A stretch of DNA of 15,031 bases from Bdellovibrionota bacterium FG-2 (GCA_051382305.1 JBBCAV010000123.1:1-15031), one strand, 5' to 3'; numbered from the stretch's first letter, positions 80 to 14,762 are shown. Numbers and translations are program-made. Notes: generated by a model not told the origin, from the letters alone.

Positions 80-535
80 TCACGATTCAAAAAATTCCTT
101 GCAACGAAGGGCGGGTCCATCCATATCTGCCAATCTCAACCCCCCCTCATTTTTTAACGTCTCCTGAACCCAATGAGCCACGCCCGTTATGGAGCTAACG
201 GCCGCCTCATAACCGATGAGTTTTTTAGGAAGGTGCTCTTTACTCGACGTAGGGTCTTTTTGAATTTGCTCAAAAATCTCTTGTTCACGCTTTGGACTGA
301 GTGCTCCAACAAATCCATGGGGATACAGTTGATGCGCGTATTTTGCGGAAGGCGACGAAAAATCTTTTGCCGCCTGTTCGCCCAGAAGTTTGGCCAAGGC
401 TAAACGTTGGCTATTGGTGATGAGGCGTTTTGAAAGAAAAAAAGGGGCATCTAGCGACCTGATAGATGCTAACACACCAAAAAAAGAGTAAATTGTTACG
501 AACTTAACTACTTGAAATTGTACATAAAAAAACAT
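80..535 (-). CDS. Hypothetical protein, divergent from the radical SAM operon; true start uncertain (ATG 535 lies inside a predicted promoter; in-frame GTG 475 or TTG 397 are alternatives)
   Basis: 151-codon ORF with protein-like composition, downstream of a good minus-strand promoter. No recognisable motif and no clear RBS. Confidence 0.4.
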   Translation of the reverse strand: MFFYVQFQVVKFVTIYSFFGVLASIRSLDAPFFLSKRLITNSQRLALAKLLGEQAAKDFSSPSAKYAHQLYPHGFVGALSPKREQEIFEQIQKDPTSSKEHLPKKLIGYEAAVSSITGVAHWVQETLKNEGGLRLADMDGPALRCKEFFES

Positions 536-545
536 AAGATGTCAA
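517..545 (-). promoter_or_regulatory. Predicted sigma70-type promoter, leftward
   Basis: Minus strand: TTGACA (545-540), 17-nt spacer, TACAAT (522-517). The -35 is perfect, the -10 matches 5/6 and the spacing is optimal. Confidence 0.7.
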
Positions 546-561
546 TCTACTATTAGAATAG

Positions 562-590
562 TTGACAGTTTTGGTTTATTGGTTTAGCTT
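562..590 (+). promoter_or_regulatory. Predicted sigma70-type promoter for the peptide/radical SAM operon
   Basis: TTGACA (562-567), 17-nt spacer, TAGCTT (585-590, keeps the key T-A---T positions). It ends 45 nt upstream of the peptide ATG. Confidence 0.65.
571..586. repeat. Perfect 8-bp tandem direct repeat TTGGTTTA x2 in the promoter spacer; possible regulator site
   Basis: TTGGTTTA at 571-578 and 579-586, overlapping the predicted -10. The repeat is seen directly; the function is inferred. Confidence 0.35.
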
Positions 591-622
591 GGCGATGTTC
601 TAAATTATTGGAACGCCAGCAT

Positions 623-628
623 AGGAGA
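623..628 (+). promoter_or_regulatory. Shine-Dalgarno site of the small peptide ORF
   Basis: AGGAGA followed by an A-rich spacer (AATCAAA) before ATG 636. Confidence 0.8.
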
Positions 629-635
629 AATCAAA

Positions 636-743
636 ATGGACGAAAATCAAGTCCAGCAAGTGCTGGAAGAGCAAGAACTGATCCTCGCCCCCTTCGAACT
701 TATCCTTTTGGACGAAGCACGAATTGGTGACGGTGGATTCTAG
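636..743 (+). CDS. 35-aa peptide MDENQVQQVLEEQELILAPFELILLDEARIGDGGF; putative RiPP precursor
   Basis: Translated by hand from ATG 636 to TAG 743. It has a strong RBS, is the first ORF after the promoter and ends 9 nt before the radical SAM start. Acidic/aliphatic leader-like region followed by a short Gly-rich C-terminus (RIGDGGF). Too short for the ORF track. Confidence 0.8.
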   Translation: MDENQVQQVLEEQELILAPFELILLDEARIGDGGF

Positions 744-752
744 AGGCTTGTT

Positions 753-2453
753 ATGCGCCAGAAAAGATCGCCATCAAAAGTATTACTGACGACCTTCTCT
801 GGCGCACCAACCTCATTCAACTTTTTTATCCCTGATCCAGGCTTGGCACTACTTGCAGGGGTACTCAAAGCGAACGGGTATACGCCCATTATCATTGACT
901 TTAACTCGCTCGAACATTTGGAAGATACTTTTAATCGAAATGACCTCACTGAACATTTCATGCAAACCTCCGATTTTTCAGACCGCAACTCCAACAACGC
1001 AAAATCCGAGGATTTTTACGCATTAAAATCCGAATTCACCGCCATATTTCTTCGAAATTCCGAAGAAAGAATTTTTGAATCTCTGAAAACAAAGATCACC
1101 GAAACAAAAAGTAAACTCCTCTGCATAAAGCCTTGGCTCGGCCCCTCTCTAGAGATATTTTTGAAAATAAGTAAACGCCTAAAAAACCTATTTCCTGGGT
1201 TAACGATCGCCCTTGGAGGCCCATCGATTTCAAGTATAGACAAAGAAGCGCTCCCTTTTCTTAGTGAAGTTGACTTCATTACCTTTGGTAAGGGTGAACA
1301 AGCGATTCTAAGCATTTTGGATGTAGTTAATGGTAAAAAAGAACCAGAAAATGTCGAAAATACCTATTTTTTAAACGAAGACAAGAAATACCAATACGGC
1401 ACTCATTCAACTCAACGCACCTTAACCACTCCTGCCTCACCTCTTTATGATCCCGACGTCTATCTCGGTATCGCTGAACAAAAATTACCTCTTTTTATCG
1501 TCGAGGATTCGCGAGGCTGTTATTTTTCGTGCGCCTTCTGTACCCATCCAAATAAATCCGACAACTCGGTAATCGAAAATCCAGTAGAAAACACTTTCAA
1601 GCAATTCCAATCTCTCCATCAACAGTTTGGCTCAACAACATTTCGTCTTTCCGGCTCCTGTCCACCGCCCCGCCTATTTAATCATTTATCTAAAATGATA
1701 ATCGAATCGAACCAAACGTTTCGCATCGGCGCATTTTTTCACTCCGCCTTCACTCCTCATGTTGACTTTAAAGCAATGGCAAAAGCCGGGTTTACTGCCC
1801 TTTTGACCGGAATTGAAAGCACAGATGAAAGTACACGTGTGAACTTTTTTAAAAAAAATCTAAATTTACAGCACCTAAACCTTCTAGGCAACCTCGCCGG
1901 AAAAAATGGAATATTTATCAATCAAAGCCTCATTATACCAACACCAGGAGACTCATTGAGTCACCTAAGAGCGTATATATCCAAATATCCATTTCAAAAA
2001 GATTTGTCTTCCATTTCGGTATCGTTTCCAAAAATTTTTCCAGAAACAGATTGGTGGTCCTCGTCCAATAGTTACGGAATTGAAATTTCTTCACGTTCCG
2101 CATATCTAAAGTACCTGCTATTTGGAAAGAGTGAGAATGAGGCCCGCCCTCAATCACTAGCACTTACGATCAACAACAAAACCCATCAACAACTAGTGTC
2201 TGAGTTCATCACCGCAAAAAAAACAATACTATCATCCGGAGTTCAGCTCGACTTTAGCGATGAACTAAGCCTTATGGCGGCGGCGCTGAAATTGCCTAAC
2301 TCTGCTTTTCAAAAAATCCAAAGCACAGCTATCGGTCTTTTTGATTTACCGAAAATAGTGACTCTTTTTTCTGACCTTAAGACTTGCCTCACATCCTCTC
2401 CCAAAAATACCAGGTCTTTTCAATACCTTCCCCAGGAGTCGGAACATGTATAA
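753..2453 (+). CDS. B12-binding domain radical SAM enzyme (class B, methyltransferase-like), 566 aa
   Basis: N-terminal cobalamin-binding Rossmann signatures (PDPGLALLAGVLKANG...IIDFN, ALGGPS, DFITFGKGE). SRGCYFSCAFC carries CxxxCxxC at 1518-1541, followed by a GIES motif. AGAGG RBS at 742-746. Confidence 0.92.
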   Translation: MRQKRSPSKVLLTTFSGAPTSFNFFIPDPGLALLAGVLKANGYTPIIIDFNSLEHLEDTFNRNDLTEHFMQTSDFSDRNSNNAKSEDFYALKSEFTAIFLRNSEERIFESLKTKITETKSKLLCIKPWLGPSLEIFLKISKRLKNLFPGLTIALGGPSISSIDKEALPFLSEVDFITFGKGEQAILSILDVVNGKKEPENVENTYFLNEDKKYQYGTHSTQRTLTTPASPLYDPDVYLGIAEQKLPLFIVEDSRGCYFSCAFCTHPNKSDNSVIENPVENTFKQFQSLHQQFGSTTFRLSGSCPPPRLFNHLSKMIIESNQTFRIGAFFHSAFTPHVDFKAMAKAGFTALLTGIESTDESTRVNFFKKNLNLQHLNLLGNLAGKNGIFINQSLIIPTPGDSLSHLRAYISKYPFQKDLSSISVSFPKIFPETDWWSSSNSYGIEISSRSAYLKYLLFGKSENEARPQSLALTINNKTHQQLVSEFITAKKTILSSGVQLDFSDELSLMAAALKLPNSAFQKIQSTAIGLFDLPKIVTLFSDLKTCLTSSPKNTRSFQYLPQESEHV

Positions 2454-5130
2454 ATTTCTAGCCCTCTTTTTACTAAATACATTCGGCGATATCTTAGTTA
2501 TTTCAACAATACCAATGTATATTATTGAGAAAACAGGGAGCTTTACCAAGGGAACCTATTTCACCATTCTCGTCTTTGTCGCCATATTGATCACAGCGAG
2601 GCTAGCGGGGTTTTTAACTCAGAAATTCAACCCGCTTAAATTTGTAGCAGTGATCGACCTGCTTTCCGCATTATTGGTCCTGGGGTTACTCACCACTCTT
2701 CGTGTATATGGGTTTCACTTCGAAACTTTTCTCGGGGAATGCGCAGTTCTCGCTCTTGTTGTTAACCTTCCGCTATTTGCAAAGTACAATTTGATTCATC
2801 GGTATTTCGTAGATGAAAAAGATTTGACCCAGTTTTCACTACTTCAAGGCCGCGCCAGTGGCCTAATTCTAATCTTGTCTATGCTTAGCGCTGGCTTTCT
2901 ATTTCCAAAATTAGGCTTTCAAGGCATTCTTTGGATTGACATTGCTACCTACCTACCGTGTGCCTTCTTATTGATTATGAATCGAAAAGAATCACCGCTT
3001 GGATACTATTCCAGAAAATCTGCCACCCCTACAGAGACCAACCCAGGTTCTCACTCTGCACCAGTTGGACAGCCTATTCTGGTCCAATTCCTATTGGTCG
3101 CATTGTTTCTTTTTTTAGTTCAAAATTTAAGGTCACACCTTCTTCTGTCGATTTTCAAAGTGCAATTTCAACACATTGGCCTAAATACTATTTCTCTATT
3201 TGCCGCAGTTGGCGCCATATTTTCGTTGCTATTGGCACGCTTTACTAACCATTACTATCTTCATTTAAAGAGTGTTCCGCTCGCCCTCCTAGCGGCTTTA
3301 ACTTTGCCTGTAGGAATCGCATTCTTTCTGGAGAAGTACCCATTTTTATGCATATTTCTCGCATCAGTATTTATCAACGACTGGATAGCTATTGGCTTAT
3401 CTTTATCTCGGGCTCTTCAAATGCGCGCAGAACCCTATTACCCCATGTCCAAACTTGTCTCACTTTCCATGGGATTTTCCTGTTTTTTTGGAATGTTTGG
3501 CGTCTTGGGATTTTCAAAAATTGGAGTTAATTACGGATTTGGGCTGGGATTTATTTTGATTTCTTCCACTATCTTCCTTTCCCACATCACCCTATTACCA
3601 TTTCTCAAAAGAAAGAGAGCCATCGCCTCAATAGCTACCGCCCTGTTCTGTATGATTATCTCCTCTTTTTCGTATGCTGCCGAAAATCGTTATACTACGG
3701 CAATGTCGGACCTTCCTCGGGATCTATCAGCCATCACTCCCGAAATGCTAACGGAGGACGAGAGTTTTCTGAAGACGAATACAATGTGTTCTCTGATCAG
3801 ACGAGATATCAACCAAGGTCTAATTCCTGAATTAGCCCAATCTTGGAAAATCATCGTCCCCGACCAGGTCATTGCTTTTACCATCCGCGAAGGTGCCCAT
3901 GACAGTGAAAACAATGAAATTGATGCATTGTACGTAAAAAAGAGCATGGAAGAGCAGATCAGAAAAACCCTAAGTCGGGCCCGTACCATTAATGGATTCG
4001 ACCTAATTAAAGGGGTTTCTGAATGCAACGAACGACGGTGTGTGTTGCCCGGCCTAGTTGTTGAAGGAAAAAGAGGAATTCGAATCGAATTAACCCGCCC
4101 GTGGCCTGGTTTACTTGGACTCCTGGAAGCCTCATCCTTTGTCCAAAGTGTGAGACACGATGGTAAACGAGACATTCCTATTAGTTGCGGCCCTTATCGA
4201 ATTGCGAAAATGGATGAAACGGGACTCGAGCTTACAAGAAATCCCTACTCAATTCGTCCCGCAATTGGAGGTCCTGATAAATTTATTATTCGGGTTTTGC
4301 CACCCAAAGAGGCTTACAAGGCCTTTTGTACCCATCAGATTAACGATCTTCTTTTCTACATGCCGTCCAAAGCTGACCTCCTTCGAGGAGGGTGTACTGG
4401 TGGGAACTTTGATTATAGAGAAGTATACACGGCCGGTTTCTGGTTTATTTCGTTGGGTGCAAAAATTCCAGGTCTTAGCTCGGCTATTTTGAACCGACTG
4501 AAAAAAGCCTTTAACAAGGATGTTTTCAAGAAAACTTGGGGGATTGAAGCAACTGATCAAGGACGGCTTATTCCCAGAGACTTTGGGCTATCCCCCCACA
4601 CTCCAGATCTCACGCCACCTCCTCTAAATACGATAGCGATAAACGATAAAAGCCTCGCCAAAACACCGGTAGTCATCCGATTCATCAGTGGAACACCCAA
4701 TGAATCCAACCTCAACCAAGCACTTCTTGATTGGATAAAAATGGCGGAGTTGTCCGCCAATATTATCCCAACAAAATTTTCTGAATTCATGACTGACCTC
4801 AGTGAAGGAAAATCGGACATCTATGTTTATGCAGAAATTGCAAACTCCCCTAACCCACTTGCATTCCTCGCTACTTTTTACCAAAAAGCGCTTCGGCAGG
4901 CATCTCATCATGAAAGAACTAAGCTTGAGCAGGCATGGCGCCAATACGAAACGACTCGATCAAAGATAGATTTAGACCAACTTGAACTAACGATTCGGAG
5001 AAGTAACCTTTTTCTTCCACTTTTTTCATTCAAGCGACCGCTGGTTATTTCCAAAGATTGGACAGTCGGACGTTATGGTGATCTTGGATTATTTAGCGTC
5101 GAAATCAGCCGCTTTGGGAGGCGCCAATGA
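2446..5130 (+). CDS. Fusion of an MFS exporter (about aa 1-387, DHA3/EntS/MefA-like) with an extracytoplasmic solute-binding protein family 5 domain (about aa 412-894)
   Basis: About 12 hydrophobic segments in a 6+6 layout with a central hydrophilic loop. The N-terminus resembles DHA3 (GDILVISTIPMYIIEKTGS; AGFLTQKFNPLKFVAVIDL as a degenerate motif A). The C-half has the SBP5 signature LIPELAQSWKI...FTIREG...IDALYVKKS and CGPYRI. Overlaps the upstream stop by 8 nt. Confidence 0.82.
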   Translation: MYKFLALFLLNTFGDILVISTIPMYIIEKTGSFTKGTYFTILVFVAILITARLAGFLTQKFNPLKFVAVIDLLSALLVLGLLTTLRVYGFHFETFLGECAVLALVVNLPLFAKYNLIHRYFVDEKDLTQFSLLQGRASGLILILSMLSAGFLFPKLGFQGILWIDIATYLPCAFLLIMNRKESPLGYYSRKSATPTETNPGSHSAPVGQPILVQFLLVALFLFLVQNLRSHLLLSIFKVQFQHIGLNTISLFAAVGAIFSLLLARFTNHYYLHLKSVPLALLAALTLPVGIAFFLEKYPFLCIFLASVFINDWIAIGLSLSRALQMRAEPYYPMSKLVSLSMGFSCFFGMFGVLGFSKIGVNYGFGLGFILISSTIFLSHITLLPFLKRKRAIASIATALFCMIISSFSYAAENRYTTAMSDLPRDLSAITPEMLTEDESFLKTNTMCSLIRRDINQGLIPELAQSWKIIVPDQVIAFTIREGAHDSENNEIDALYVKKSMEEQIRKTLSRARTINGFDLIKGVSECNERRCVLPGLVVEGKRGIRIELTRPWPGLLGLLEASSFVQSVRHDGKRDIPISCGPYRIAKMDETGLELTRNPYSIRPAIGGPDKFIIRVLPPKEAYKAFCTHQINDLLFYMPSKADLLRGGCTGGNFDYREVYTAGFWFISLGAKIPGLSSAILNRLKKAFNKDVFKKTWGIEATDQGRLIPRDFGLSPHTPDLTPPPLNTIAINDKSLAKTPVVIRFISGTPNESNLNQALLDWIKMAELSANIIPTKFSEFMTDLSEGKSDIYVYAEIANSPNPLAFLATFYQKALRQASHHERTKLEQAWRQYETTRSKIDLDQLELTIRRSNLFLPLFSFKRPLVISKDWTVGRYGDLGLFSVEISRFGRRQ

Positions 5131-7652
5131 ACAAGCCTGATCACCACATCATCAAGACAGTATTGTATCCGCTGGTCTTACTGTTCGGGTTAAGTACGGC
5201 TGTTACCCTTTTCTCAATTAAAGAAACTAGAAAAGTCGCTCTTCTGTCATCTGACACGTTTATTCTTGAACAGTTAATTAAAGTATCGGACGAAGCGATT
5301 TTGAATCAAGATGTATTAGCTTTGACTGCAAATGCCCAATCCCTCATCGGTGAGAGAATGCGAATTCGGTTAACCTTTCCGGATGGGTATCAAGTGTATT
5401 ATCCGAAAGATTATTTTGCCAACTCCTGGGAACGTAAGAGTTCAATTGAGTTCAATTATAAGATGCGTTCTGGGCAGAACCTAAAAGTCGAAGCATGGAC
5501 AGGCGAGGGGAGAGAGCCGTGGGCACTCTATTTCATTTATCTTCTGCTTATTACCCTTGGCACCCTTGTATTTTTTTTAGCTTTACGAAATATTCGAAAA
5601 TGGGAAGCCGACTTCACAAGTACTGCCAAATATCTATATGGCGCAGCAAAAGAAGCAAAGGAGCCCGCCCTCCATTTCGCATTTTTTGAATCTATTGCAA
5701 GATTTGCAAGGAAGGCTATTGATAACGAGAGAGCTATGATCGAGCAAGCTTTCAAACTGGAGCAAGCGAACCACATCGCGCAACTCGCCTCCCAAGTCGC
5801 CCACGACATCCGATCCCCACTCTCCGCCCTCACCATGGCAGAAAAAGAATTCTCCAAGCTTCCTGAAGAAACCCGCCTGATCGTCCGCAGCGCCGTTGGC
5901 CGTATCCGGGACATTGCAAATACATTGCTGGAAAGAAATCGCGCGATCAAAGTTAACCAAGAATCTGCGAGCGACAATACTACCACTACGGCTGAACCAA
6001 GAACCATTCAACTGCTCTCCGCAATCCTGGACGGCATTGTGAGCGAGAAGCGCATGCAATTTCGGCCCAAGCTCGGAGTCAATATCGAGTTTGAGGACAC
6101 GCGGCGCAGTTATGGCCGATTTGCTTCCATTCAGACCGGCGAGTTCAAGCGAATGGTGTCCAACCTCATCAATAATGCCGTAGAAGCACTCCCTGACTCT
6201 GGCCAGGTTTTTGTAACCCTGAACGGGGGAGAGTCTGAAGTCGTGATCAAGGTGAGGGATACCGGCAAAGGAATTCCGCCTGAAATTTTGGCGAAGCTTG
6301 GGCGTCAGGGTGAAACCCACGGCAAAACCGACGGAAATGGGCTTGGTCTGTATCACGCGCGCACACAATGCGAAGCCTGGGGTGGCAGCCTAGTGATCAC
6401 CTCTCAAGTGGGCGAGGGAACGACAGTGGTCATCACCCTTCCACGGACCAGCCCCCCCGAGTGGTTCGTTGCAGAGCTCAAGCTACAGCCCAACTCAACC
6501 GTCGTAGTTCTCGACGACGACGACAGTATTCACCGGATTTGGCAGGGAAGGGCAGACTCCGAGAAAATGCTCGAGCAAGGCATTACACTCATTCACCTCT
6601 CGACTCCCTCCGACATTTGTAGGTGGCATGCAGAGTCGGTGAAAAATGGCCTTAAGTTGGTTCAGTATCTTTGTGACTATGAGCTACTTGGATTTGACGA
6701 AACAGGTTTAGACCTAATTGAGAAGCTTGGAATTGCCAGCCAGAGTATCTTGGTGACCAGTCGATACGAAGAACCGACAATACGAGAACGTTGTAACAAT
6801 CTTCGAGTGCCGCTCATCCCTAAGGGTAACGCGGCTATTGTACCCATCACAGTCACGGCGGCCGCCCCAGCACCGGAAACCAAAGCCCCCGATGCCATCC
6901 TCATCGACGATGATGATTTAGTGCACCTCACATGGAAGGCCGCCGCCAAGCGCAAAGGTCTTACGCTCCTGGGGTTCAAGTCTGTGGATGAGTTTCTCAG
7001 GGCCGCTGAGTTGCTGAGCCGGTCAACCCCCGTCTACATCGACTCCTACCTCGGCAACGACTCAACCGGTAAGCCCGTTCAAGGCGAGGAAGCATCCCGT
7101 GATATTTCAGCCATGGGCTTCAAGGAGATCTACCTAGCCACTGGGCTCGCACCGACCAATCCCGAGCGCTACACGTGGCTTACGGGAATCCGGGATAAGG
7201 ACCCACCTTTTACTGAGCCCCCTGTAGCGGTGGAAATCGACTACGCAAAAGTACGCAACTACTGCCATGACCTGCTTAAGCCGATCCAACAGGCCAGCAA
7301 CATTCTGAGGATGATCGACAACGTCAATCTCGATGACCCCACTGATCCAGAGTCCCTTTCTGACTACCTGCCACTCCTGGATGGGGTCGGCAAGACACTC
7401 ACCAGCCAGCGCAATCATCGCCTTCAGATGAGAGCCGAGATGACGGCCGGTGACCTTACCCGCGTTGCGGACTTGGATGATCGTCTCATGAAGGCTTATG
7501 ACGAAGTCCAACGAAGCGCAGTTTGCTCTCCTGATCAAATCGTGGGGCTAAAACGCAGCGGAGAGCTCAGTCAGCGCTTTAAGGTGCTCCAAGTGGAGTC
7601 ATCGGCCCTGGCACGCGATTCGGCCGCACTCCTCAACGCGAACCGAAATTAA
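5127..7652 (+). CDS. Membrane-bound hybrid sensor histidine kinase: TM-periplasmic-TM, HisKA, HATPase, two receiver-like domains, C-terminal HisKA-like helical domain
   Basis: Two TM segments. H-box QVAHDIRSPL (H226), N-box NLINNAVEA, G1 DTGKGI, G2 GNGLGL. REC1 VLDDDD...LCDY...LVTS...IPK; REC2 LIDDDD...YIDS...LATG...DK. C-terminal CHDLLKPI (H714). ATGA 4-nt overlap with the upstream gene. Confidence 0.92.
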   Translation: MNKPDHHIIKTVLYPLVLLFGLSTAVTLFSIKETRKVALLSSDTFILEQLIKVSDEAILNQDVLALTANAQSLIGERMRIRLTFPDGYQVYYPKDYFANSWERKSSIEFNYKMRSGQNLKVEAWTGEGREPWALYFIYLLLITLGTLVFFLALRNIRKWEADFTSTAKYLYGAAKEAKEPALHFAFFESIARFARKAIDNERAMIEQAFKLEQANHIAQLASQVAHDIRSPLSALTMAEKEFSKLPEETRLIVRSAVGRIRDIANTLLERNRAIKVNQESASDNTTTTAEPRTIQLLSAILDGIVSEKRMQFRPKLGVNIEFEDTRRSYGRFASIQTGEFKRMVSNLINNAVEALPDSGQVFVTLNGGESEVVIKVRDTGKGIPPEILAKLGRQGETHGKTDGNGLGLYHARTQCEAWGGSLVITSQVGEGTTVVITLPRTSPPEWFVAELKLQPNSTVVVLDDDDSIHRIWQGRADSEKMLEQGITLIHLSTPSDICRWHAESVKNGLKLVQYLCDYELLGFDETGLDLIEKLGIASQSILVTSRYEEPTIRERCNNLRVPLIPKGNAAIVPITVTAAAPAPETKAPDAILIDDDDLVHLTWKAAAKRKGLTLLGFKSVDEFLRAAELLSRSTPVYIDSYLGNDSTGKPVQGEEASRDISAMGFKEIYLATGLAPTNPERYTWLTGIRDKDPPFTEPPVAVEIDYAKVRNYCHDLLKPIQQASNILRMIDNVNLDDPTDPESLSDYLPLLDGVGKTLTSQRNHRLQMRAEMTAGDLTRVADLDDRLMKAYDEVQRSAVCSPDQIVGLKRSGELSQRFKVLQVESSALARDSAALLNANRN

Positions 7653-7699: not shown

Positions 7700-7865
7700 T
7701 GTTCCGTCCCAGGTAATCGACGACAGTTTTCGTAACCCTATTCCCACATAGACGACGACAGATTGAGGCCATCCATTCCCAGATACACGACGACAGTATG
7801 GGAGGGGTGATTCTCAGTTTCCGGCGCCACTTATCAAGGGGTCATTCCCAGATGAGCGACGACAC
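7700..7865 (+). repeat. IS21 left end: terminal IR (7700-7727) plus five ~20-bp repeats, consensus TCCCAGATNNNCGACGACAG
   Basis: Copies start at 7707, 7742, 7777, 7812 (degenerate) and 7846, a period of 35/35/35/34 bp. Multiple subterminal IstA-binding repeats are typical of IS21. Confidence 0.9.
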
Positions 7866-7923
7866 CTGAATTTATTGAATTTCGATGATTCCCTCTCCTT
7901 AAACCAATGGAGGGAGTCAGAGG

Positions 7924-9510
7924 ATGACACGTCAGGCAAGGAAACGTCTTATGGACCGGAAAATTGTGGAACTGCTTTTACAGGGGGTGAGTGCCCGAGA
8001 GGCGATGCGACAACTGCGACTGGGAGACCGCAGGGTTCGCAAAGTGAAGTTGCTTGCTGAGGAATATGGGTACCTAAGCCGAACTGAACCAGTGCCACTC
8101 CCCTTGTACCCTGAGCCACTTTTTCCGGATGGGCCTGATGGACGGGCAAATAAGGCGTCAGAGGCCAACACGCTAATGTTGGCCAGAAAGCCTTGGGTCA
8201 TCGAGCGCCTTGAAGCCGGATGGCATCCCATCACCGTTTACGAAGAACTGGGGATAGCAGTAAGTCGATCAAGCTTTTACCGGTTTTTACACCGCCATGA
8301 AATCTATAAACTCTCTGAGGGTTCTCGTAGGGTGGTCCCTGAGATTATCCACAACCCCGGGGAGGCCCTGCTTCTGGACTGGGGCAAGCTTAGAGATGTC
8401 GTTGATCCAGAGACGGGAAAAAGGCGCATTTTGTGGGCTTTTGTTGGGGTACTCGGCTACTCGCGCTACCTCATGGTGCGTCTCGTCTGGACTAATGAGA
8501 CTCAAGTAACCCTTCGTGCGATTGAAAGCATGCTCAGGGAAATTGGCGGTGTTCCAGAGCGAGTTACCTCGGACAACCCCAAATGTTTCGCACTTGAGGC
8601 ATCCCGCTACGAGCCTCTTCTTAATCCCGCCTTCGAGCGAATGGCGGGTCATTACGGCATGAGGATTGAGTGCCTCCCACCGGCTGACCCGGAAAAAAAG
8701 GGGAAAGTAGAGCGTCCCATGCCGTACATCCGTCGACTATACGAGGCCCACGGCGAGGTCTGGCATGGCATCGAGGAATCTCAAGCTTACCTGGAACGTA
8801 AACTTTTACTGGCCAACGAACGCAAACATGGCACCACTCGCATGAAGCCGATCGAGCAACTACTTCAAGTTGAAGTCAGCCAACTCAAGCCGCTGCCATC
8901 GCTAGCCTACGAGCCCGAAGAAGTCAGTGAAGGCAAGGTAAGGCGGGATGGTCATGTCAGGTTTGATAGCAAATACTACTCGCTCGAAGAAAGATTTATC
9001 GGCAAGGAAGTCCTGATTCTTGCCACCAAAACCCAAGTGTCGCTCTACCACCAAGGCCACCTGGTTGAGGTCCATGAGCGCATACCACTTACGAATGCAC
9101 TCACCTCAAAATCAACGAAACTACACCACCGAAAACCCTGGGAAAGAGAAATGCAAGATGAGTCCATGTATCGCAGCAAGGCCCTGAAACTGGGGCCTGA
9201 CGTCGATCGATTGGTTCTGATGATTTTAAGTCAGGGCCAAGGGTTTATCGACACCCGTAAAATTTGGGGCGTTTTAAGCTTAGACAAGACGTACTCACCG
9301 GCCCAAATAAACGAAGCTTGCCGCCAGGCCATTGAGCTTGACGCCATCGGTTACCGGTCAATCAAGGCGCTCATCAAACTTCTCCCCCAAGATCCAAAAG
9401 GCGCGAATCCTCAACAAAGAGACTCCAAGCAAGCGAGCCAATTAGACGCCAAAAACAAGTTCGTTAGATCAATGTCGGTCTACGAAGAACAGCTCAAATT
9501 ACTGCATTAA
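7924..9510 (+). CDS. istA: IS21-family DDE transposase IstA, 528 aa
   Basis: N-terminal HTH-like region; PGEALLLDWG (D), LGYSRY, TSDNPK (D), KGKVER (E); C-terminal VRRDGHVRFDSKYYS beta-barrel motif. Confidence 0.96.
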   Translation: MTRQARKRLMDRKIVELLLQGVSAREAMRQLRLGDRRVRKVKLLAEEYGYLSRTEPVPLPLYPEPLFPDGPDGRANKASEANTLMLARKPWVIERLEAGWHPITVYEELGIAVSRSSFYRFLHRHEIYKLSEGSRRVVPEIIHNPGEALLLDWGKLRDVVDPETGKRRILWAFVGVLGYSRYLMVRLVWTNETQVTLRAIESMLREIGGVPERVTSDNPKCFALEASRYEPLLNPAFERMAGHYGMRIECLPPADPEKKGKVERPMPYIRRLYEAHGEVWHGIEESQAYLERKLLLANERKHGTTRMKPIEQLLQVEVSQLKPLPSLAYEPEEVSEGKVRRDGHVRFDSKYYSLEERFIGKEVLILATKTQVSLYHQGHLVEVHERIPLTNALTSKSTKLHHRKPWEREMQDESMYRSKALKLGPDVDRLVLMILSQGQGFIDTRKIWGVLSLDKTYSPAQINEACRQAIELDAIGYRSIKALIKLLPQDPKGANPQQRDSKQASQLDAKNKFVRSMSVYEEQLKLLH

Positions 9511-9552
9511 TTTGAGTTCTAACCCAAACAAAACAAAAGGAAATAAAATCCC

Positions 9553-10323
9553 ATGACACCTGAAATATTAAAGTCGCTTCTGGGAGACCTCAGGCTGCCC
9601 ACTGCGGCGAAAGAGCTTGAGGTCATACTATCGAGTCAGAAAAAAGCGGTGAGCCTCGGCTGGGTCGCAGACCTCCTCGAACGAGAAATCGACTCCAGAC
9701 GAGAAAACAGTCTAAAAGCTCGACTTAAAAGTGCGAGATTCCCTGAAATCACCACCCTTGAGGGTTTTGACTTTAGTTTTAACCCAGATATTGATGAAGA
9801 AAAGATCAGGGAACTCGCGACCCTCAAGTTTATGAGTCAAAACCAAATCGCACTCTTTCTTGGGGCTCCCGGGGTCGGGAAAACTCACCTTGCGCTAGCC
9901 ATTGGGGTCCTGGCCGTGCGCGATGGCCGCCGGGTTTACTGCACGAGTGCAAAACGACTTTCTCAGGAAATCATACTGGGAAAGCTCCGAGGAAATCTTG
10001 ACTTACTTTTCAAGAAACTGCTGTCGGCCCACCTTTGGATTATTGACGACTGGGGCGTCGTATCGATGAACCGAGAAGTGGCGGAGAAAATGTTCGACCT
10101 CATGGACCGCCGCAAACATAGCTCCGCAATGATCCTAACCAGCAATCGTGACGTCAGTGAGTGGGCTCAGGTTTTTCCAGACCCTATCATTGCAAACGCG
10201 ACCGTCGACCGCATCTTTGACCGGGCTAAAACGGTTCTATTTAAAGGCGAGAGTTACAGGCTAAAAGGTCGGATTGTGACAAGGGATGTTAAAGAGATTG
10301 ACGAAGTAATAAAAAAACACTAA
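9553..10323 (+). CDS. istB: IS21-family AAA+ ATPase helper IstB, 256 aa
   Basis: Walker A GAPGVGKT, Walker B WIIDD, LTSN, ATVDRI and GESYR motifs. AAGGA RBS upstream. Confidence 0.96.
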   Translation: MTPEILKSLLGDLRLPTAAKELEVILSSQKKAVSLGWVADLLEREIDSRRENSLKARLKSARFPEITTLEGFDFSFNPDIDEEKIRELATLKFMSQNQIALFLGAPGVGKTHLALAIGVLAVRDGRRVYCTSAKRLSQEIILGKLRGNLDLLFKKLLSAHLWIIDDWGVVSMNREVAEKMFDLMDRRKHSSAMILTSNRDVSEWAQVFPDPIIANATVDRIFDRAKTVLFKGESYRLKGRIVTRDVKEIDEVIKKH

Positions 10324-10341
10324 TTGACCCACTCAAATCAG

Positions 10342-10393
10342 GTGTCGTCCATTATGTGGGACGGTACTGTCGTCGGATACCTGGGACGTGACA
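10342..10393 (-). repeat. IS21 right end: terminal IR (10366-10393) with two inverted copies of the 20-bp repeat
   Basis: The reverse complement TGTCACGTCCCAGGTATCCGACGACAGT matches the left end TGTTCCGTCCCAGGTAATCGACGACAGT at 24/28. The second copy TCCCACATAATGGACGACAC is at 10361-10342. Confidence 0.9.
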
Positions 10394-11424: not shown

Positions 11425-12804
11425 TTGATACAATCCAACTCACGTATCTTGATGGCAACCAGTAATACCCTCCTCATTCTAGGTCTTCTTGCGGTCTCGG
11501 GCTCTTTGGAGGCCCAGGCTGTGGAATATTACGGCCGAGCGATGGCCGGAGCATTGCTTTCATCGGAACAAAGCAAAGACACCTCGGACCCAACCGTGGG
11601 GAATGACTCCAGCATCGTGTCGAGTCGCCTATCCGCTCGCATTCTTGGGCTGAGTTCGTATGGCTTTGAAGGAAACCTCGATTTAAGAGACAAAAATGAC
11701 TTTTTCGAAAAGCTCGACCGCGAGAAGCTTCAACTCACCTCCGGAAACCAGTTTCAGGTGCAACAACTCAATGCGCGGTTACCTGCAATCTCGAGCCGAA
11801 TTTTCGGCACCGTTGGGCGTTTTAGCCTTCCCGAGACCGGCGGGAAATTTAGCGATGGCCTCGAAACAGGATATCGCTGGAATGATTCGTGGCGCACGGC
11901 AATTTTTGGAGGCCTCAATCCCAAACTCGAGGAACAAACGTTTGTTACCTATAATCCAGATAGCCAGATCTTAGGCACTTATACCTCCTATCAACCCCAA
12001 GTCTTTTCTTCCTCCCAAAGCGCTTTTTGGTCAACCGCTTGGGTGGGGGAGCGCACCGCCGCTCACCTAGATAGGCTTTTTTGGTTTAACGAGTTTATTT
12101 TTCATTATTCAAACACCAATCAGTTGATCGCAATGGGGTTCTTTGACTTCATCCCCAGATTCGAAATTCAAACAGCCCTCCTTTCGTGGCACCAAGAGCT
12201 CATGAGCCATTGGTCCTCTCAATTGAATTTGACGGCAATCGATGTCATCGAATATTCGCGGCGCAAAGGAATCCTAGAAACCTTGCCCTCAAGCCCTTAC
12301 CGAGAAGCGGCTCTGAGCCTAAGGCGCCAATGGGGTGAGGCCGGATTTTTTGACTTCAACGGATCATATGGTCTTCGAGATCTAGATTCACTCGCCAAAA
12401 TCGAGTTTTCAGCGGGACCTTCTTTTTACCGAGTTTTTGACCCAAATATCTCATTTAAGTTATTAGAAGGGGCCCGGCGCAACTTTATCAGCAACGATCT
12501 CTTTACTCGGATAGGTGGCTCTTACTTTGGAAAAACCTGGGAAGTCGATGTAGACTTCGGCTTTTCCCGTGTTGCTGAAAATGATGGCGCCACAAAGCAT
12601 CAATGGATCAATGAAATCGCTTACTCGCATTACTTCGGACGAGAACTGCTTGCCTCCTTATCGCTTGAGCAGGCCAGGGACGAGCAAACATCCATTTGGA
12701 GCGGCTCCGTTCGAGTGAGTTACTCTTTCGGACAAAGATCGTTTGCACCCCTTCCGCAGCAGGCACCTCCTCCTAGCCCAATCCCTCCGATGGGGAGGCT
12801 CTGA
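11425..12804 (+). CDS. Probable outer-membrane beta-barrel protein (candidate porin of a porin-cytochrome complex); ATG 11452 is a plausible start
   Basis: Signal peptide ending AQA|VE. Many amphipathic beta-strand-like segments rich in aromatic residues and Gly (GFEGNLDLR, FGTVGRF, DGLETGYRW, WEVDVDFGF, VRVSYSF). Stop overlaps the cytochrome start (TGATG). Confidence 0.7.
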   Translation: MIQSNSRILMATSNTLLILGLLAVSGSLEAQAVEYYGRAMAGALLSSEQSKDTSDPTVGNDSSIVSSRLSARILGLSSYGFEGNLDLRDKNDFFEKLDREKLQLTSGNQFQVQQLNARLPAISSRIFGTVGRFSLPETGGKFSDGLETGYRWNDSWRTAIFGGLNPKLEEQTFVTYNPDSQILGTYTSYQPQVFSSSQSAFWSTAWVGERTAAHLDRLFWFNEFIFHYSNTNQLIAMGFFDFIPRFEIQTALLSWHQELMSHWSSQLNLTAIDVIEYSRRKGILETLPSSPYREAALSLRRQWGEAGFFDFNGSYGLRDLDSLAKIEFSAGPSFYRVFDPNISFKLLEGARRNFISNDLFTRIGGSYFGKTWEVDVDFGFSRVAENDGATKHQWINEIAYSHYFGRELLASLSLEQARDEQTSIWSGSVRVSYSFGQRSFAPLPQQAPPPSPIPPMGRL

Positions 12805-14762
12805 TGGCTAAACCTATCTTTCTTTTCTTGCTCTCACTCTTTTTCAGCGTTGGTTCCGTTTTTGCGTCCGAAGGTCAAGCACCCGAGGGGCTGCTCAACA
12901 AACTCTTAGCCCCCGGCCAACTCATCGAAGGCCACAAGGATCTCGAACAATCTCGCTGTTTAGAATGCCATGTTCCCCGCGAAGGCATTCCTAATTCAAA
13001 ATGCCTGGAATGCCATAAACCCATTCGCGCCCAAGTAGAAAAGAAATCCGGATTTCACGGCCTCGCCACTCAAGCCTGTATCTCTTGCCACTCGGATCAC
13101 AAAGGGCGAAATTTCGACACCACCCAGGTGGATTCAAAAAAATTCGATCATAAATTAACCGGATACATCCTTGAGGGAAAACACGCCGATCTCAAGTGCT
13201 CCGATTGCCACAAAGAAAAACGCGCTGAGCGCACTCATTACTTTGGTCTCAAGGTTTCTTGCGTCAGCTGTCACCAAAAAAACGATCCTCACCAATTTCA
13301 GGGCGACTGGGCAAAAAAGGATTGCAATGCTTGCCACCAGCTCAAGGCCTGGAAAGAAAATGTTCGATTTGACCACAAAAAAGACGCGCACTTTCAACTT
13401 GAAGGGAAACACGCTCAGATCGGCTGCAAGGATTGCCACCTTCCTGAAAATAGCAAGCACGCCATCTATCATTGGGAACACTTTGAAAAAACGTCCTGCC
13501 TGGCTTGCCATAAAAACAATCCGCACCATTTTGGAACCTTCAAATCCCCGCGCCTCAAAAATCCCAACGATTGCAGCACCTGCCATCTAGAAACTGGATG
13601 GAAGGATACCCCCAAATTTAGCCATAACGAACAAACTCGTTTCAAAATCGGGGGCAAGCACTTGGATCTTAAGTGCGACAAATGCCACACCCCGATTTCT
13701 GGATCAAAAAACCCCAAGGACCAAGGGCCCAGGATCTACCATTGGGAAAAGCTTTCACAAATAACCTGTGCGGTCTGTCACCACAACCCCCACACCAAGA
13801 CCTTTGCACCTAACCTTCTAAAAAAACAGTGTACCGAATGTCATAATGACCGGAGTTGGACTGAATTTAAAAAAACAGGAATCAACTTTGACCATGCTTC
13901 AACCCGCTTTGCACTTACTGGAAAACATGAATCCTTGTCTTGTGAGGCTTGTCACCGAATCAACGAAAAACCCGTTTTCAAATTCAAAAACCAGACTTTG
14001 AATTTCTGCGTGGATTGCCATAAAAATGTCCATCTCGGTCAAATGAGCTCGTCCACAACAACCCAAGCCTGCTCTCAATGCCATTCCACCCAGACCTTCG
14101 AAAAACGTTTAGAATTCGACCATTCAAAAACCCAATATCCCCTTAAATGGAAGCACGCCAACGTGGATTGCATCAAATGCCATTTACCCACCTTGGACAA
14201 ATTTTCGGAAAAACCATTTCGAACTAAGTCCAGGTTTCAATTTCCTACGCTGAGGACACAAGATTGCGCCGCTTGCCATAAAGATCCCCATGAAGCGCGG
14301 TATGGGAAGCTCTGCTTATCTTGCCACACGGAACAAGGCTGGAAATCTGGAAATACCGACTTTCACAAGGCCTTTACTCTCCAAGGCGTCCACTTCACTT
14401 TTCAATGTGGTGAATGCCATTTGGATAAGCGCCCGCTCGCTGGCCAAAGTCAAATGTGCGTCCTTTGCCACAAAAAAGATGACGTTCACCAAGGTCGACT
14501 GGGCGAATGCTCAAAGTGCCATGAGCAAACTTTTTGGGAAATGCCCCGTTTTAGACATTCAATGACCAGCTTTCCCCTACGTGGAATTCACCGGACGCTC
14601 GATTGCAATGCGTGCCATTCAACCGGAATTTACCGTGGCCTAACCAATCAATGTGTCAATTGTCACCTGAACGATGCCCTTAGTTTTACGGGCAACCCCG
14701 ATCACCATCTACTCATGGGGCGAAACTGTTCAGACTGTCACAATCAATTTTCGTTTCACTAA
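12804..14762 (+). CDS. Exported multiheme c-type cytochrome with 24 CxxCH motifs in eight triheme repeats, 652 aa
   Basis: 24 CxxCH motifs counted by hand, from CLECH to the terminal CSDCH. Repeat unit FxH...(F/Y)xLxGxH...CxxCH...CxxCH..(D/N)(P/V)H...CxxCH...W. Sec signal peptide VFA|SE, no lipobox. Confidence 0.95.
   Translation: MAKPIFLFLLSLFFSVGSVFASEGQAPEGLLNKLLAPGQLIEGHKDLEQSRCLECHVPREGIPNSKCLECHKPIRAQVEKKSGFHGLATQACISCHSDHKGRNFDTTQVDSKKFDHKLTGYILEGKHADLKCSDCHKEKRAERTHYFGLKVSCVSCHQKNDPHQFQGDWAKKDCNACHQLKAWKENVRFDHKKDAHFQLEGKHAQIGCKDCHLPENSKHAIYHWEHFEKTSCLACHKNNPHHFGTFKSPRLKNPNDCSTCHLETGWKDTPKFSHNEQTRFKIGGKHLDLKCDKCHTPISGSKNPKDQGPRIYHWEKLSQITCAVCHHNPHTKTFAPNLLKKQCTECHNDRSWTEFKKTGINFDHASTRFALTGKHESLSCEACHRINEKPVFKFKNQTLNFCVDCHKNVHLGQMSSSTTTQACSQCHSTQTFEKRLEFDHSKTQYPLKWKHANVDCIKCHLPTLDKFSEKPFRTKSRFQFPTLRTQDCAACHKDPHEARYGKLCLSCHTEQGWKSGNTDFHKAFTLQGVHFTFQCGECHLDKRPLAGQSQMCVLCHKKDDVHQGRLGECSKCHEQTFWEMPRFRHSMTSFPLRGIHRTLDCNACHSTGIYRGLTNQCVNCHLNDALSFTGNPDHHLLMGRNCSDCHNQFSFH

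Follow-up and report, generated by a model that had tools for sequence, protein, structure and literature searches.

Peptide quorum sensing through histidine kinases is textbook knowledge for Gram-positive bacteria, whereas Gram-negative signaling is taught as small-molecule based. Peptide pherotype loci are represented by comQXPA in Bacillus and agrBDCA in staphylococci, and the Vibrio proteins LuxP-LuxQ-LuxU-LuxO form a phosphorelay that senses AI-2. TRAP and TTT systems are secondary transporters that depend on a solute-binding protein (SBP), and UhpC, which belongs to the major facilitator superfamily (MFS), is a co-sensor of the kinase UhpB. Here, we analyzed a 15,031-bp contig of the uncultured Bdellovibrionota bacterium FG-2 (JBBCAV010000123.1), which encodes a candidate precursor peptide, a predicted B12-binding radical S-adenosylmethionine (SAM) enzyme, a fusion of an MFS protein with a family-5 SBP (SBP5), and a hybrid histidine kinase. 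Below, "the window" means this whole contig (C123 of genome G000, which comprises 4.34 Mb in 433 contigs, is 85% complete, and has 49.8% GC). On balance, we lean toward the view that the four genes form a self-contained circuit that makes, exports, captures, and senses a radical-SAM-modified peptide. The block from the peptide gene to the sensor domain of the kinase has moved as one cassette onto a conserved kinase core. The four open reading frames (ORFs) are as follows.

636-743, plus strand: candidate peptide ORF, 35 amino acids (aa)
753-2453, plus strand: B12 radical SAM ORF, 566 aa
2446-5130, plus strand: MFS::SBP fusion ORF, 894 aa
5127-7652, plus strand: kinase ORF, 841 aa

The gaps between them are, in order, +9, -8, and -4 nt. 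A first-pass annotation, made from the sequence alone, had proposed this row of four co-oriented genes; the gene gaps it gave are exactly those found here, and ORF and domain analysis bears out the assignment of the four products.

In its arrangement, the locus resembles LuxPQ, in that the gene of a periplasmic binding protein immediately precedes that of a hybrid kinase whose periplasmic domain is small. As in the Lux relay, paralogous modules (described below) include an NtrC-type sigma-54 regulator, with a 75-aa ORF between the regulator gene and the enzyme gene. The likeness proposed here is one of arrangement. LuxP is a sugar-type SBP, whereas the SBP of the window belongs to family 5 and is tethered to an MFS protein. 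The synthase gene luxS is unlinked, whereas the biosynthetic genes of the window lie in the operon, and the window kinase has two receivers. With comQXP and agr, the locus shares an operon that contains a peptide, a modifying enzyme, and a receptor kinase. A second shared trait is that peptide, enzyme, and sensor form a variable block joined to a conserved core of the kinase, as seen from the breakpoints and from contig G019:C105 described below. Here, the likeness is one of logic and not of membership: no Pfam or NCBIfam match to ComQ, ComP, AgrB, or AgrC was found, sensing would proceed through an SBP and not through a polytopic membrane sensor, the host is diderm, and the enzyme is a B12 radical SAM protein. 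TRAP and TTT systems likewise combine a binding protein with a secondary transporter, and in UhpC-UhpB an MFS-type protein is likewise coupled to a histidine kinase. However, the membrane parts of TRAP and TTT are not MFS proteins, UhpC has no SBP, and biosynthetic genes accompany neither.

The ribosomally synthesized and posttranslationally modified peptides (RiPPs) offer two further comparisons. Like the window enzyme, ApyD combines a B12-binding with a radical SAM domain and is encoded next to its precursor gene. ApyD is reported to beta-methylate an aromatic residue, the penultimate Tyr, close to the precursor C terminus (PMC10635010); the window peptide ends in Phe. The same paper ascribes to ApyD a peptide-recognition (RRE) domain, whereas none was detected in the window enzyme, which scores far under the ApyD cutoffs. 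Streptococcal RaS-RiPPs under Rgg/SHP control are, according to PMC13361665, radical-SAM-modified short peptides that are tied to signaling and have a dedicated exporter. There, the SHP signal is separate, unmodified, and sensed in the cytoplasm, whereas here the modified peptide is the presumed ligand and would be perceived by a periplasmic SBP together with a kinase.

The first-pass annotation did not recognize the architecture as a characterized system. In agreement with this, a search of open-access full text (supplements and subscription journals were outside the search) found no paper that describes SBP5/hybrid-kinase modules linked with RiPP enzymes, and none on a kinase accompanied by an MFS::SBP fusion. 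The architecture is not unique, as the window is one member of a module family. A modified-peptide cassette on a sensor-kinase core is probably an undescribed design for Gram-negative bacteria. New from the window are its B12 radical SAM version, a pair of split and fused loci, and a cassette swap at the H-box.

Cassette exchange and recurrence of the module

A close relative of the kinase core is found on contig G019:C21, where it is preceded by an unrelated sensor and by a different, divergently encoded SBP5 (546 aa). BLASTN comparison of the window with this contig revealed 92% identity over 5774-7637, 95% identity over 148-434, and no similarity between these regions. The breakpoints, at 434/435 and 5773/5774, are sharp. 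They delimit the following parts.

148-434, minus strand: remnant of a resident family-5 SBP gene, 287 nt, 95% nucleotide identity to G019:C21 (L139 13739-13453); left flank of the cassette
435-5773, plus strand: swapped-in cassette of 5.34 kb with promoter region, peptide, radical SAM, MFS::SBP, and kinase sensor
5127-5773, plus strand: kinase sensor region, aa 1-216, with a first transmembrane (TM) helix (TM1, 8-26), a periplasmic part (~27-132, ~105 residues), a second helix (TM2, 133-151), and a linker
5774-7652, plus strand: transmitter core, aa 217-841, with His226, HATPase (340-441), receiver 1 (~457-575), and receiver 2 (~606-700)

At the protein level, aa 217-841 of the kinase are 91% identical to the G019:C21 kinase and aa 1-216 are unrelated, with the break lying 9 residues before His226. 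The GC content is 42.0% over 435-5773, compared to 54.7% in the rest of the kinase gene and 49.8% in the genome. On contig G019:C105, a third, short N-terminal region is present on the same core, with 72% identity from the H-box on. By these comparisons, the peptide-to-sensor block has taken the place of an SBP5/sensor pair that formerly resided on the conserved transmitter. A block swap of peptide, enzyme, SBP, and sensor is expected if the four form one specificity unit. From the cassette boundaries follows a clear hypothesis that specificity is conferred by four parts (peptide, enzyme, SBP, and sensor domain), and the H-box is a natural site for chimeric reporters. A 151-aa ORF (80-535) around the SBP remnant is probably not a real gene.

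Among public sequencing runs, the locus was found in one DNA run (X1, probably the source sample), and no RNA run was listed. In X1, one Logan contig spans 405-5813 with a depth of 64.8, and another joins 434 to 5774 with a depth of 67.9. The right flank (5784-7433) is represented by short contigs, one of which (6137-6565) differs at 11 positions. The second form, joining 434 to 5774, and the contig with 11 differences indicate that at least two related strains or alleles were present in the sample. A chimeric join at 5774 is unlikely.

Following a suggestion of the first-pass annotation, the neighborhoods of homologous genes were compared, and the outcome did not refute the circuit proposed there. 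The links peptide-radical SAM-MFS-SBP and SBP-kinase are kept, and all four genes together occur only in the window. Three close radical SAM loci include the 5' end of the gene and upstream DNA (window, G372:C57, and G372:C297), and in all three a small acidic ORF with a Shine-Dalgarno (SD) sequence lies directly upstream. G372:C297, a 3.7-kb contig from another genus, encodes on its minus strand an SD-preceded small ORF, a radical SAM enzyme (34% identity), an MFS protein (397 aa), and a separate SBP5 with a lipoprotein signal peptide, after which the contig ends. The radical SAM/MFS and MFS/SBP genes overlap by 4 nt each. This is the only homologue with downstream DNA, and the order radical SAM-MFS-SBP is kept. 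In G372:C57 (JACQAU010000337.1), a GGAGG-preceded small ORF lies upstream of a 41%-identical radical SAM gene, inside which the contig ends. This gene has a single in-frame TAA (L030 3251-3253) where the window has an Arg codon, and may be a pseudogene or contain a sequencing error. A 4-nt overlap between SBP and kinase genes was found in G000:C166 and G019:C69, where both the SBP and the sensor are homologues of the window proteins (39-42% identity).

The sister copies in G000 are decayed. C217 (L018 5289-6351) has a 157-aa radical SAM fragment leading into a 211-aa SBP fragment beside an insertion sequence (IS) transposase; C166 (L029 1083-4309) has an SBP without N-terminal TM helix or signal peptide, followed by a 624-aa kinase; and C59 contains kinase pieces. 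The system is accessory and mobile. Although they belong to different genera, G019:C69 (L020) and G000:C166 (L029) are nearly identical in the SBP C terminus and the kinase N terminus, which suggests recent transfer or a shared population. The SBP homology stops at the same residue in G019:C69 and G000:C217, and the peptide VYYTHLL is encoded beside both breaks.

The module also recurs beyond the close relatives. The kinase core (H-box to second receiver) has ~12 paralogues in G000 with 40-49% identity. All nine ~500-aa neighbors of these kinases that were tested are SBP_bac_5 proteins, and SBP5 adjoins the kinase at 10 G000 loci, C166 and the window included. A peptide-modifying enzyme (radical SAM, YcaO, or LanM-like) is encoded nearby at nine G000 loci. 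The paralogous modules of G000 are arranged as follows.

C168 (L132 5334-12301) and C107 (L131 5350-12278): sigma-54 NtrC-type regulator, 75-aa ORF, radical SAM/SPASM enzyme, 118-120-aa secreted protein, SBP5, kinase
C102: YydG-like radical SAM enzyme; GNAT
C129: divergent methyltransferase and B12 radical SAM enzyme (ApyD family, E 2e-45)
C307 (L134): sigma-54-like promoter, 88-aa ORF with signal peptide, LanM-like DUF4135 protein, SBP5, kinase
C328: YcaO gene flanked by the SBP5 and kinase genes; divergent sigma-54 regulator
C216: shorter YcaO-like gene after SBP5, just above the Pfam cutoff; divergent kinase
C114: shorter YcaO-like gene after SBP5, below the Pfam cutoff; divergent kinase

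Most of the six genes of C168 and C107 overlap or nearly abut. The 75-aa ORF has a His-Asp-Leu-Arg motif, and the 118-120-aa protein carries a signal peptide and terminates in four or five Gly followed by Trp-Gly. By analogy, these two loci would each constitute a LuxPQ/LuxU/LuxO-like set with its own maturase. At C307, a good match to a sigma-54 -24/-12 element (TGGTAT N5 TTGCT, ~2130-2150) is located ~40 nt upstream of the 88-aa ORF; the C-terminal 25 residues of this ORF are similar to an ORF of 25 aa at the orthologous locus, G019:C8. On G000:C427 (L130 487-3956), a UbiA-family prenyltransferase gene lies directly before an 872-aa kinase paralogue with a large, different sensor, and no SBP5 was seen there.

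A survey of G018 and G019 covered 20 kinase loci, 10 per genome. SBP5 is adjacent at 12 of them, and a YcaO, B12 radical SAM, LanM-like, or YydG-like homologue is present at 8; others have methyltransferases or a GNAT. At G019:C10 (L144 9022-15651), a 40-aa acidic peptide without signal peptide is encoded together with a B12 radical SAM enzyme (567 aa), an M19 membrane dipeptidase, SBP5, and kinase, and the dipeptidase hints at products trimmed to very short peptides. A second type of MFS::SBP fusion, independent of the first, is encoded at G019:C62 (L146 3763-9669): a 752-aa MFS_1::SBP_bac_5 protein, both halves of which are recognized by Pfam. It is followed by a double methyltransferase of 456 aa and by a kinase of the same family. 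The receiver-receiver region of the kinase was found in 46 of the 75 genomes of the bacterial family, with at most 18 matches per genome. Together, the window locus and ~20 sister modules in three genomes point to an SBP/kinase receptor family that is paired with RiPP-type enzymes in a phylum that includes predatory bacteria.

The encoded proteins

The candidate precursor is an acidic peptide of 35 aa (MDENQVQQVLEEQELILAPFELILLDEARIGDGGF), the ORF of which is preceded by an AGGAG ribosome-binding site 8 nt upstream. It has no Pfam or NCBIfam match and no paralogue in G000. The upstream peptide of the window ends with IGDGGF and the two of G372 (C57 and C297) end with DVGGAL and QKGGETH; the three have a common layout: an acidic N terminus, an E-L-x-x-L stretch, and a C-terminal Gly-Gly followed by 1-3 residues. 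A double-glycine leader was considered and rejected, because the sequence preceding GG departs from the consensus of such leaders, and only 1-3 residues follow GG. The precursors at the loci with MFS genes (window and G372:C297) lack a signal peptide, whereas C168, C107, C307, and C328 have Sec-type precursors and no MFS. That an MFS protein accompanies precursors without signal peptide fits export by the MFS, as far as these few cases go.

Upstream of the peptide gene, the first-pass annotation had placed a single promoter for the operon. A TTGACA box is indeed present, but the -10 element is poor, and promoter-like sites are no more frequent than expected by chance (12 in a consensus scan vs 10.7 expected). 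The possible promoter was read by eye, is weak, and is absent from the list of scanned sites.

562-590, plus strand: possible sigma-70 promoter, TTGACA (562-567), 17 nt, TAGCTT

The radical SAM enzyme contains a CxxxCxxC motif at C256/C260/C263, which is invariant in all four aligned relatives. Its matches to PF04055 Radical_SAM (E 8.7e-6, 26.4 bits) and to PF02310 B12-binding (E 1.3e-6, 28.7 bits) are under the respective cutoffs of 29.5 and 32.1 bits. The best NCBIfam matches are PhpK (E 6e-20), rSAM_ocin_1 (TIGR03975, E 3e-17, 62.4 bits vs a cutoff of 281.85), and ApyD (NF050148, E 2e-13, 49.5 bits vs 750), the latter two reaching neither cutoff. By its motif and domain matches, the enzyme probably belongs to the class B (B12-binding) radical SAM proteins, where it would represent a rare subfamily. 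A word search of 5.8 billion proteins returned three relatives, 2 of 75 genomes of the bacterial family had a match at E ≤ 1e-50, and in a 401-genome sample of the phylum 14 genomes had a match at E ≤ 1e-25, of which only G372 exceeded 30% identity. A scan of metagenome contigs with the radical SAM alignment gave 80 loci, all of them distant generic B12 radical SAM enzymes that provide no context for the subfamily (best E 4e-15; ≤34% identity over partial matches, except for one 45-residue fragment). A sequence search of the PDB yielded a single weak match, 9ccb_A (E 2.4e-4).

The MFS::SBP fusion protein consists of three parts, defined by hydropathy, by an AlphaFold2 (AF2) model (predicted local distance difference test score [pLDDT] 90.8, predicted template modeling score [pTM] 0.77, 79-row alignment), and by Pfam.

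2446-3606, plus strand: MFS half, aa 1-387, 12 TM helices (6+6) with a central loop (179-206), by hydropathy and AF2
3619-3675, plus strand: 13th TM helix, aa 392-410, after KRKR, by hydropathy (AF2 helix 389-407)
3676-5130, plus strand: family-5 (cluster C) SBP domain, aa 411-894 (PF00496 SBP_bac_5, 49.1 bits vs a cutoff of 32.4)

In a Foldseek search with the SBP domain, the top matches were OppA, NikA, MppA, CntA, and AapF (E ~1e-17, template modeling score 0.65-0.78 on the target), and DppE was also found. The 13th helix looks like a former signal peptide or anchor, in keeping with the lipoprotein-type signal peptide at the start of the separate SBP of G372:C297, and would place the SBP domain in the periplasm. 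The MFS half has no Pfam match of its own and matches TIGR00900 weakly (E 2.4e-4, 20.6 bits vs a cutoff of 319.6). Of 21 homologues of this half, 16 match MFS_1 and 10 match MFS_3, the Pfam family named 'Transmembrane secretion effector'.

The fusion had no match in a PDB sequence search, and a word-based homologue search returned only the protein itself. An exhaustive HMMER search of 1.84 billion representatives detected 11 proteins at E ≤ 1e-30. Full-length fusions (P0006, P0007, P0008, P0118, and P0119) have 875-914 aa and are 26-31% identical to the window fusion (alignment A2). P0021, P0022, and P0036 make up another, distant clade of fusions, which is similar to the split pair of G372:C297; stand-alone MFS and stand-alone SBP proteins are also members of the family. 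The MFS and the SBP were thus joined and separated more than once, indicating that the two work together. The MFS homologue in G364 has unrelated neighbors. No match to the fusion was found in the genome holding G372:C57 (L030), the incompleteness of which precludes a claim of absence.

The kinase has a HATPase_c domain (79.4 bits, Pfam), and H226, D463-465, D517, T544, and K566 are conserved across 13 aligned paralogues. Pfam detected no Response_reg domain in it. Its AF2 model (pLDDT 83) matches the tandem-receiver protein PleD and the receivers of the hybrid kinases Sln1 and CKI1, so that the protein is predicted to be a hybrid histidine kinase with two receiver domains. The C terminus (~706-837) forms long helices in the model, with a His in the first helix. 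Neither it nor the 75-aa ORFs have a Pfam match to a phosphotransfer domain, and BLASTP detected no similarity between it and the 75-aa ORFs of C168. Based on a His motif seen by eye, the C terminus and the 75-aa ORFs might be histidine phosphotransfer-like, an idea at the level of the motif only.

The window sensor is homologous only to the sensors of G000:C166, G000:C59 (a fragment), and G019:C69, and is unrelated to those of G019:C21 and G019:C105. It had no match in G372, a genome whose incompleteness precludes a claim of absence. For the pair of SBP domain (411-894) and kinase periplasmic domain (28-134), complex prediction gave a median score of 0.43 (0.22, 0.43, and 0.73 in three runs), with the best control at 0.00. 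The runs agreed in at least 2% of contacts, and the partner pLDDT was at least 69. The mark for such predictions was reached by 58 of 80 solved complexes and by 2 of 110 mismatched pairs; with a score of at most 0.60, it was reached by only 7 of those 80 complexes and by both passing mismatches. The models thus hint, weakly, that the SBP contacts the periplasmic domain of the kinase.

Readings of the operon

We propose the following sequence of events. The 35-aa acidic peptide would be the substrate of the B12 radical SAM enzyme and would be altered near its C-terminal Gly-Gly-Phe. C-methylation would be the likeliest chemistry, by analogy with B12 radical SAM methyltransferases of RiPP pathways such as ApyD. 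The product, possibly trimmed, would exit the cytoplasm via the MFS half and be captured in the periplasm by the family-5 binding domain, which is tethered to the MFS by the 13th TM helix. The loaded SBP would act on the small periplasmic domain of the kinase. Phosphate would then pass through the two receivers, and perhaps through the helical C-terminal domain, to a regulator encoded elsewhere. The role of the peptide as a substrate, the reaction, the direction of transport, the contact between SBP and kinase, and autoinduction are what we infer; gene order, folds, topology, synteny, and the recurrence of the module are observed.

The make-export-capture-signal scheme was already contained in the first-pass annotation. 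The synteny, the module family, and the cassette swap are in line with it, but several results weigh against it. No contig besides the window was found to carry all four genes, which can be attributed to the shortness of the contigs, and a same-genus genome (G001, 98% complete) has no close match to the radical SAM enzyme, the fusion, or the sensor. At 14 loci with more distant radical SAM homologues (22-28% identity), no MFS or SBP neighbor was found, and the six of these that were checked lack a similar small ORF. The decayed sister copies C217, C166, and C59 indicate a dispensable system that may be in the course of being lost. BLASTP detected no alignable similarity among the three upstream peptides, the likeness of which is positional and compositional only; moreover, this comparison comprises three peptides, two of them from one 75%-complete metagenome-assembled genome (G372). 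The 13 NCBIfam families of B12 radical SAM enzymes that match the window enzyme (E 6e-20 to 7e-3) all do so far under their cutoffs, and neither Pfam nor NCBIfam detected a peptide-recognition domain in it. The complex prediction is weak, with the three runs lying far apart. The Pfam scan of the ORFs revealed no response regulator gene in the window, and the peptide gene is not preceded by a sigma-54 -24/-12 element, so that a feedback loop is not visible. Finally, fused and split MFS/SBP pairs in two clades are what is seen for a transporter with its binding protein, and are equally compatible with import.

A broader picture, which we offer tentatively and with more doubt than conviction, is that of a plug-in peptide language. 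In it, members of this Bdellovibrionota family would carry many cassettes, each of which would combine their own precursor and chemistry (B12 radical SAM, SPASM radical SAM, YcaO, LanM-like, or methyltransferases) with a matched SBP5/sensor pair. Recombination at the H-box onto a few conserved kinase-receiver cores would create pherotype-like diversity between close strains. In the window, with the exporter fused to the binding protein, a cell would catch the signal that it makes right where the exporter releases it. If this is true, no counterpart has been described for such a device, in which sensing is coupled to export and largely private.

The main rival, which we regard as unlikely yet well worth weighing, is that the MFS::SBP protein is a binding-protein-dependent secondary importer of an external peptide-like compound. 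The kinase would then read the state of the SBP or transporter, and the radical SAM enzyme and small ORF would act on the imported compound or be merely co-regulated. Kinases that read the state of a transporter are known from UhpC/UhpB and DctA/DcuS. The repeated fusion or adjacency of MFS and SBP in two clades, with 4-nt overlaps, is as expected for a transporter and its binding protein, and family-5 SBPs, here with the fold matches OppA, DppE, NikA, and MppA, normally serve uptake. On the other hand, the Pfam families nearest to the MFS relatives are MFS_1 and MFS_3, the latter of a secretion or efflux type. Most SBP5-kinase modules have no MFS, so the constant partner of the SBP is the kinase and not a transporter. 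Import also leaves unexplained why a peptide-sized ORF and a modifying enzyme share a cassette with the SBP and the sensor. In agreement with the first-pass annotation, the Pfam scan found no ABC permease or ATPase among the window's 10 large ORFs, to which this search was confined. Whichever reading is right, the fusion would be new: a device for export and capture in one case, a class of MFS transporters that depend on a binding protein in the other.

With less probability still, the product could be a RiPP with a main role other than signaling; it might kill microbes, bind metals, or resemble a cofactor. The SBP and kinase would then only tune its production or self-protection, as NisK/NisR tune nisin production. 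RiPP-type enzymes of many chemistries adjoin the modules, MFS_3-type exporters are typical of secreted metabolites, and metallophores are ligands of some family-5 SBPs, with CntA and NikA appearing in the list of fold matches. However, the conserved part of the precursor is a very short C-terminal tail, small for an antimicrobial; tight co-transfer of sensor and biosynthesis genes is a signature of receptor-ligand specificity units; and no immunity-type gene was found in the window by the Pfam scan.

It is improbable that the small ORF is no substrate at all and that the enzyme acts instead on a metabolite other than a peptide, to be exported by the MFS and sensed by the SBP and kinase. The PhpK P-methyltransferases are the best NCBIfam match, lipid and hopanoid B12 radical SAM families also match, a peptide-recognition domain was not detected, and the similarity of the peptides is statistically weak. 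Against this stand the SD-preceded small ORF with the same layout and GG tail directly upstream in all three subfamily loci, the peptide-only enzymes of the paralogous modules (YcaO, LanM-like, and YydG-like), and the peptide/opine-binding class of the SBP.

That the locus is a contig chimera falsely joined at the conserved H-box, or a decaying, silent island next to an IS21 element, is very improbable: positions 434 and 5774 anchor a graph bubble in which the cassette forms one of the arms (both cassette ends being branch points of the assembly graph in run X1, which also weighs against the proposed circuit), the sister copies are broken, IS21 lies 53 nt downstream, and the locus was not found in the same-genus genome, but both bubble ends anchor in the same flanks, as for two alleles and not for a cross-locus join, a single Logan contig (405-5813) crosses both junctions, all four ORFs are intact with coupled starts, G000 has no second near-identical kinase core (the best other copy has 49% identity), and, were the join false, C166 and G019:C69 would still show this type of sensor fused to a full kinase. 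If the preferred reading, a modified-peptide circuit, is correct, the locus is a source of new radical SAM chemistry, exerted on a very short substrate, and of orphan family-5 SBPs with defined candidate ligands.

The remaining part of the window contains an IS21-family element, which is outside the signaling system but bounds it.

7705-10388, plus strand: IS21-family element with istA (7924-9510, 528 aa) and istB (9553-10323, 256 aa); Pfam rve/Mu-transposase C-terminal domain and IstB_IS21

The element begins 53 nt past the kinase stop codon and has terminal inverted repeats (~18 of 20 bases) at 7705 and 10388. A copy with 48%/60% identity is present on G000:C428. Past the element, a hydrolase, a 459-aa ORF, and a multiheme cytochrome c are encoded (Pfam). 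The last two occupy 11425-14762. The 459-aa ORF has no Pfam match, and its stop codon is overlapped by the start of the gene for the 652-aa cytochrome, which contains Cytochrome_C7/c3 and MtrC-like domains. The two may form an outer-membrane electron-transfer pair.

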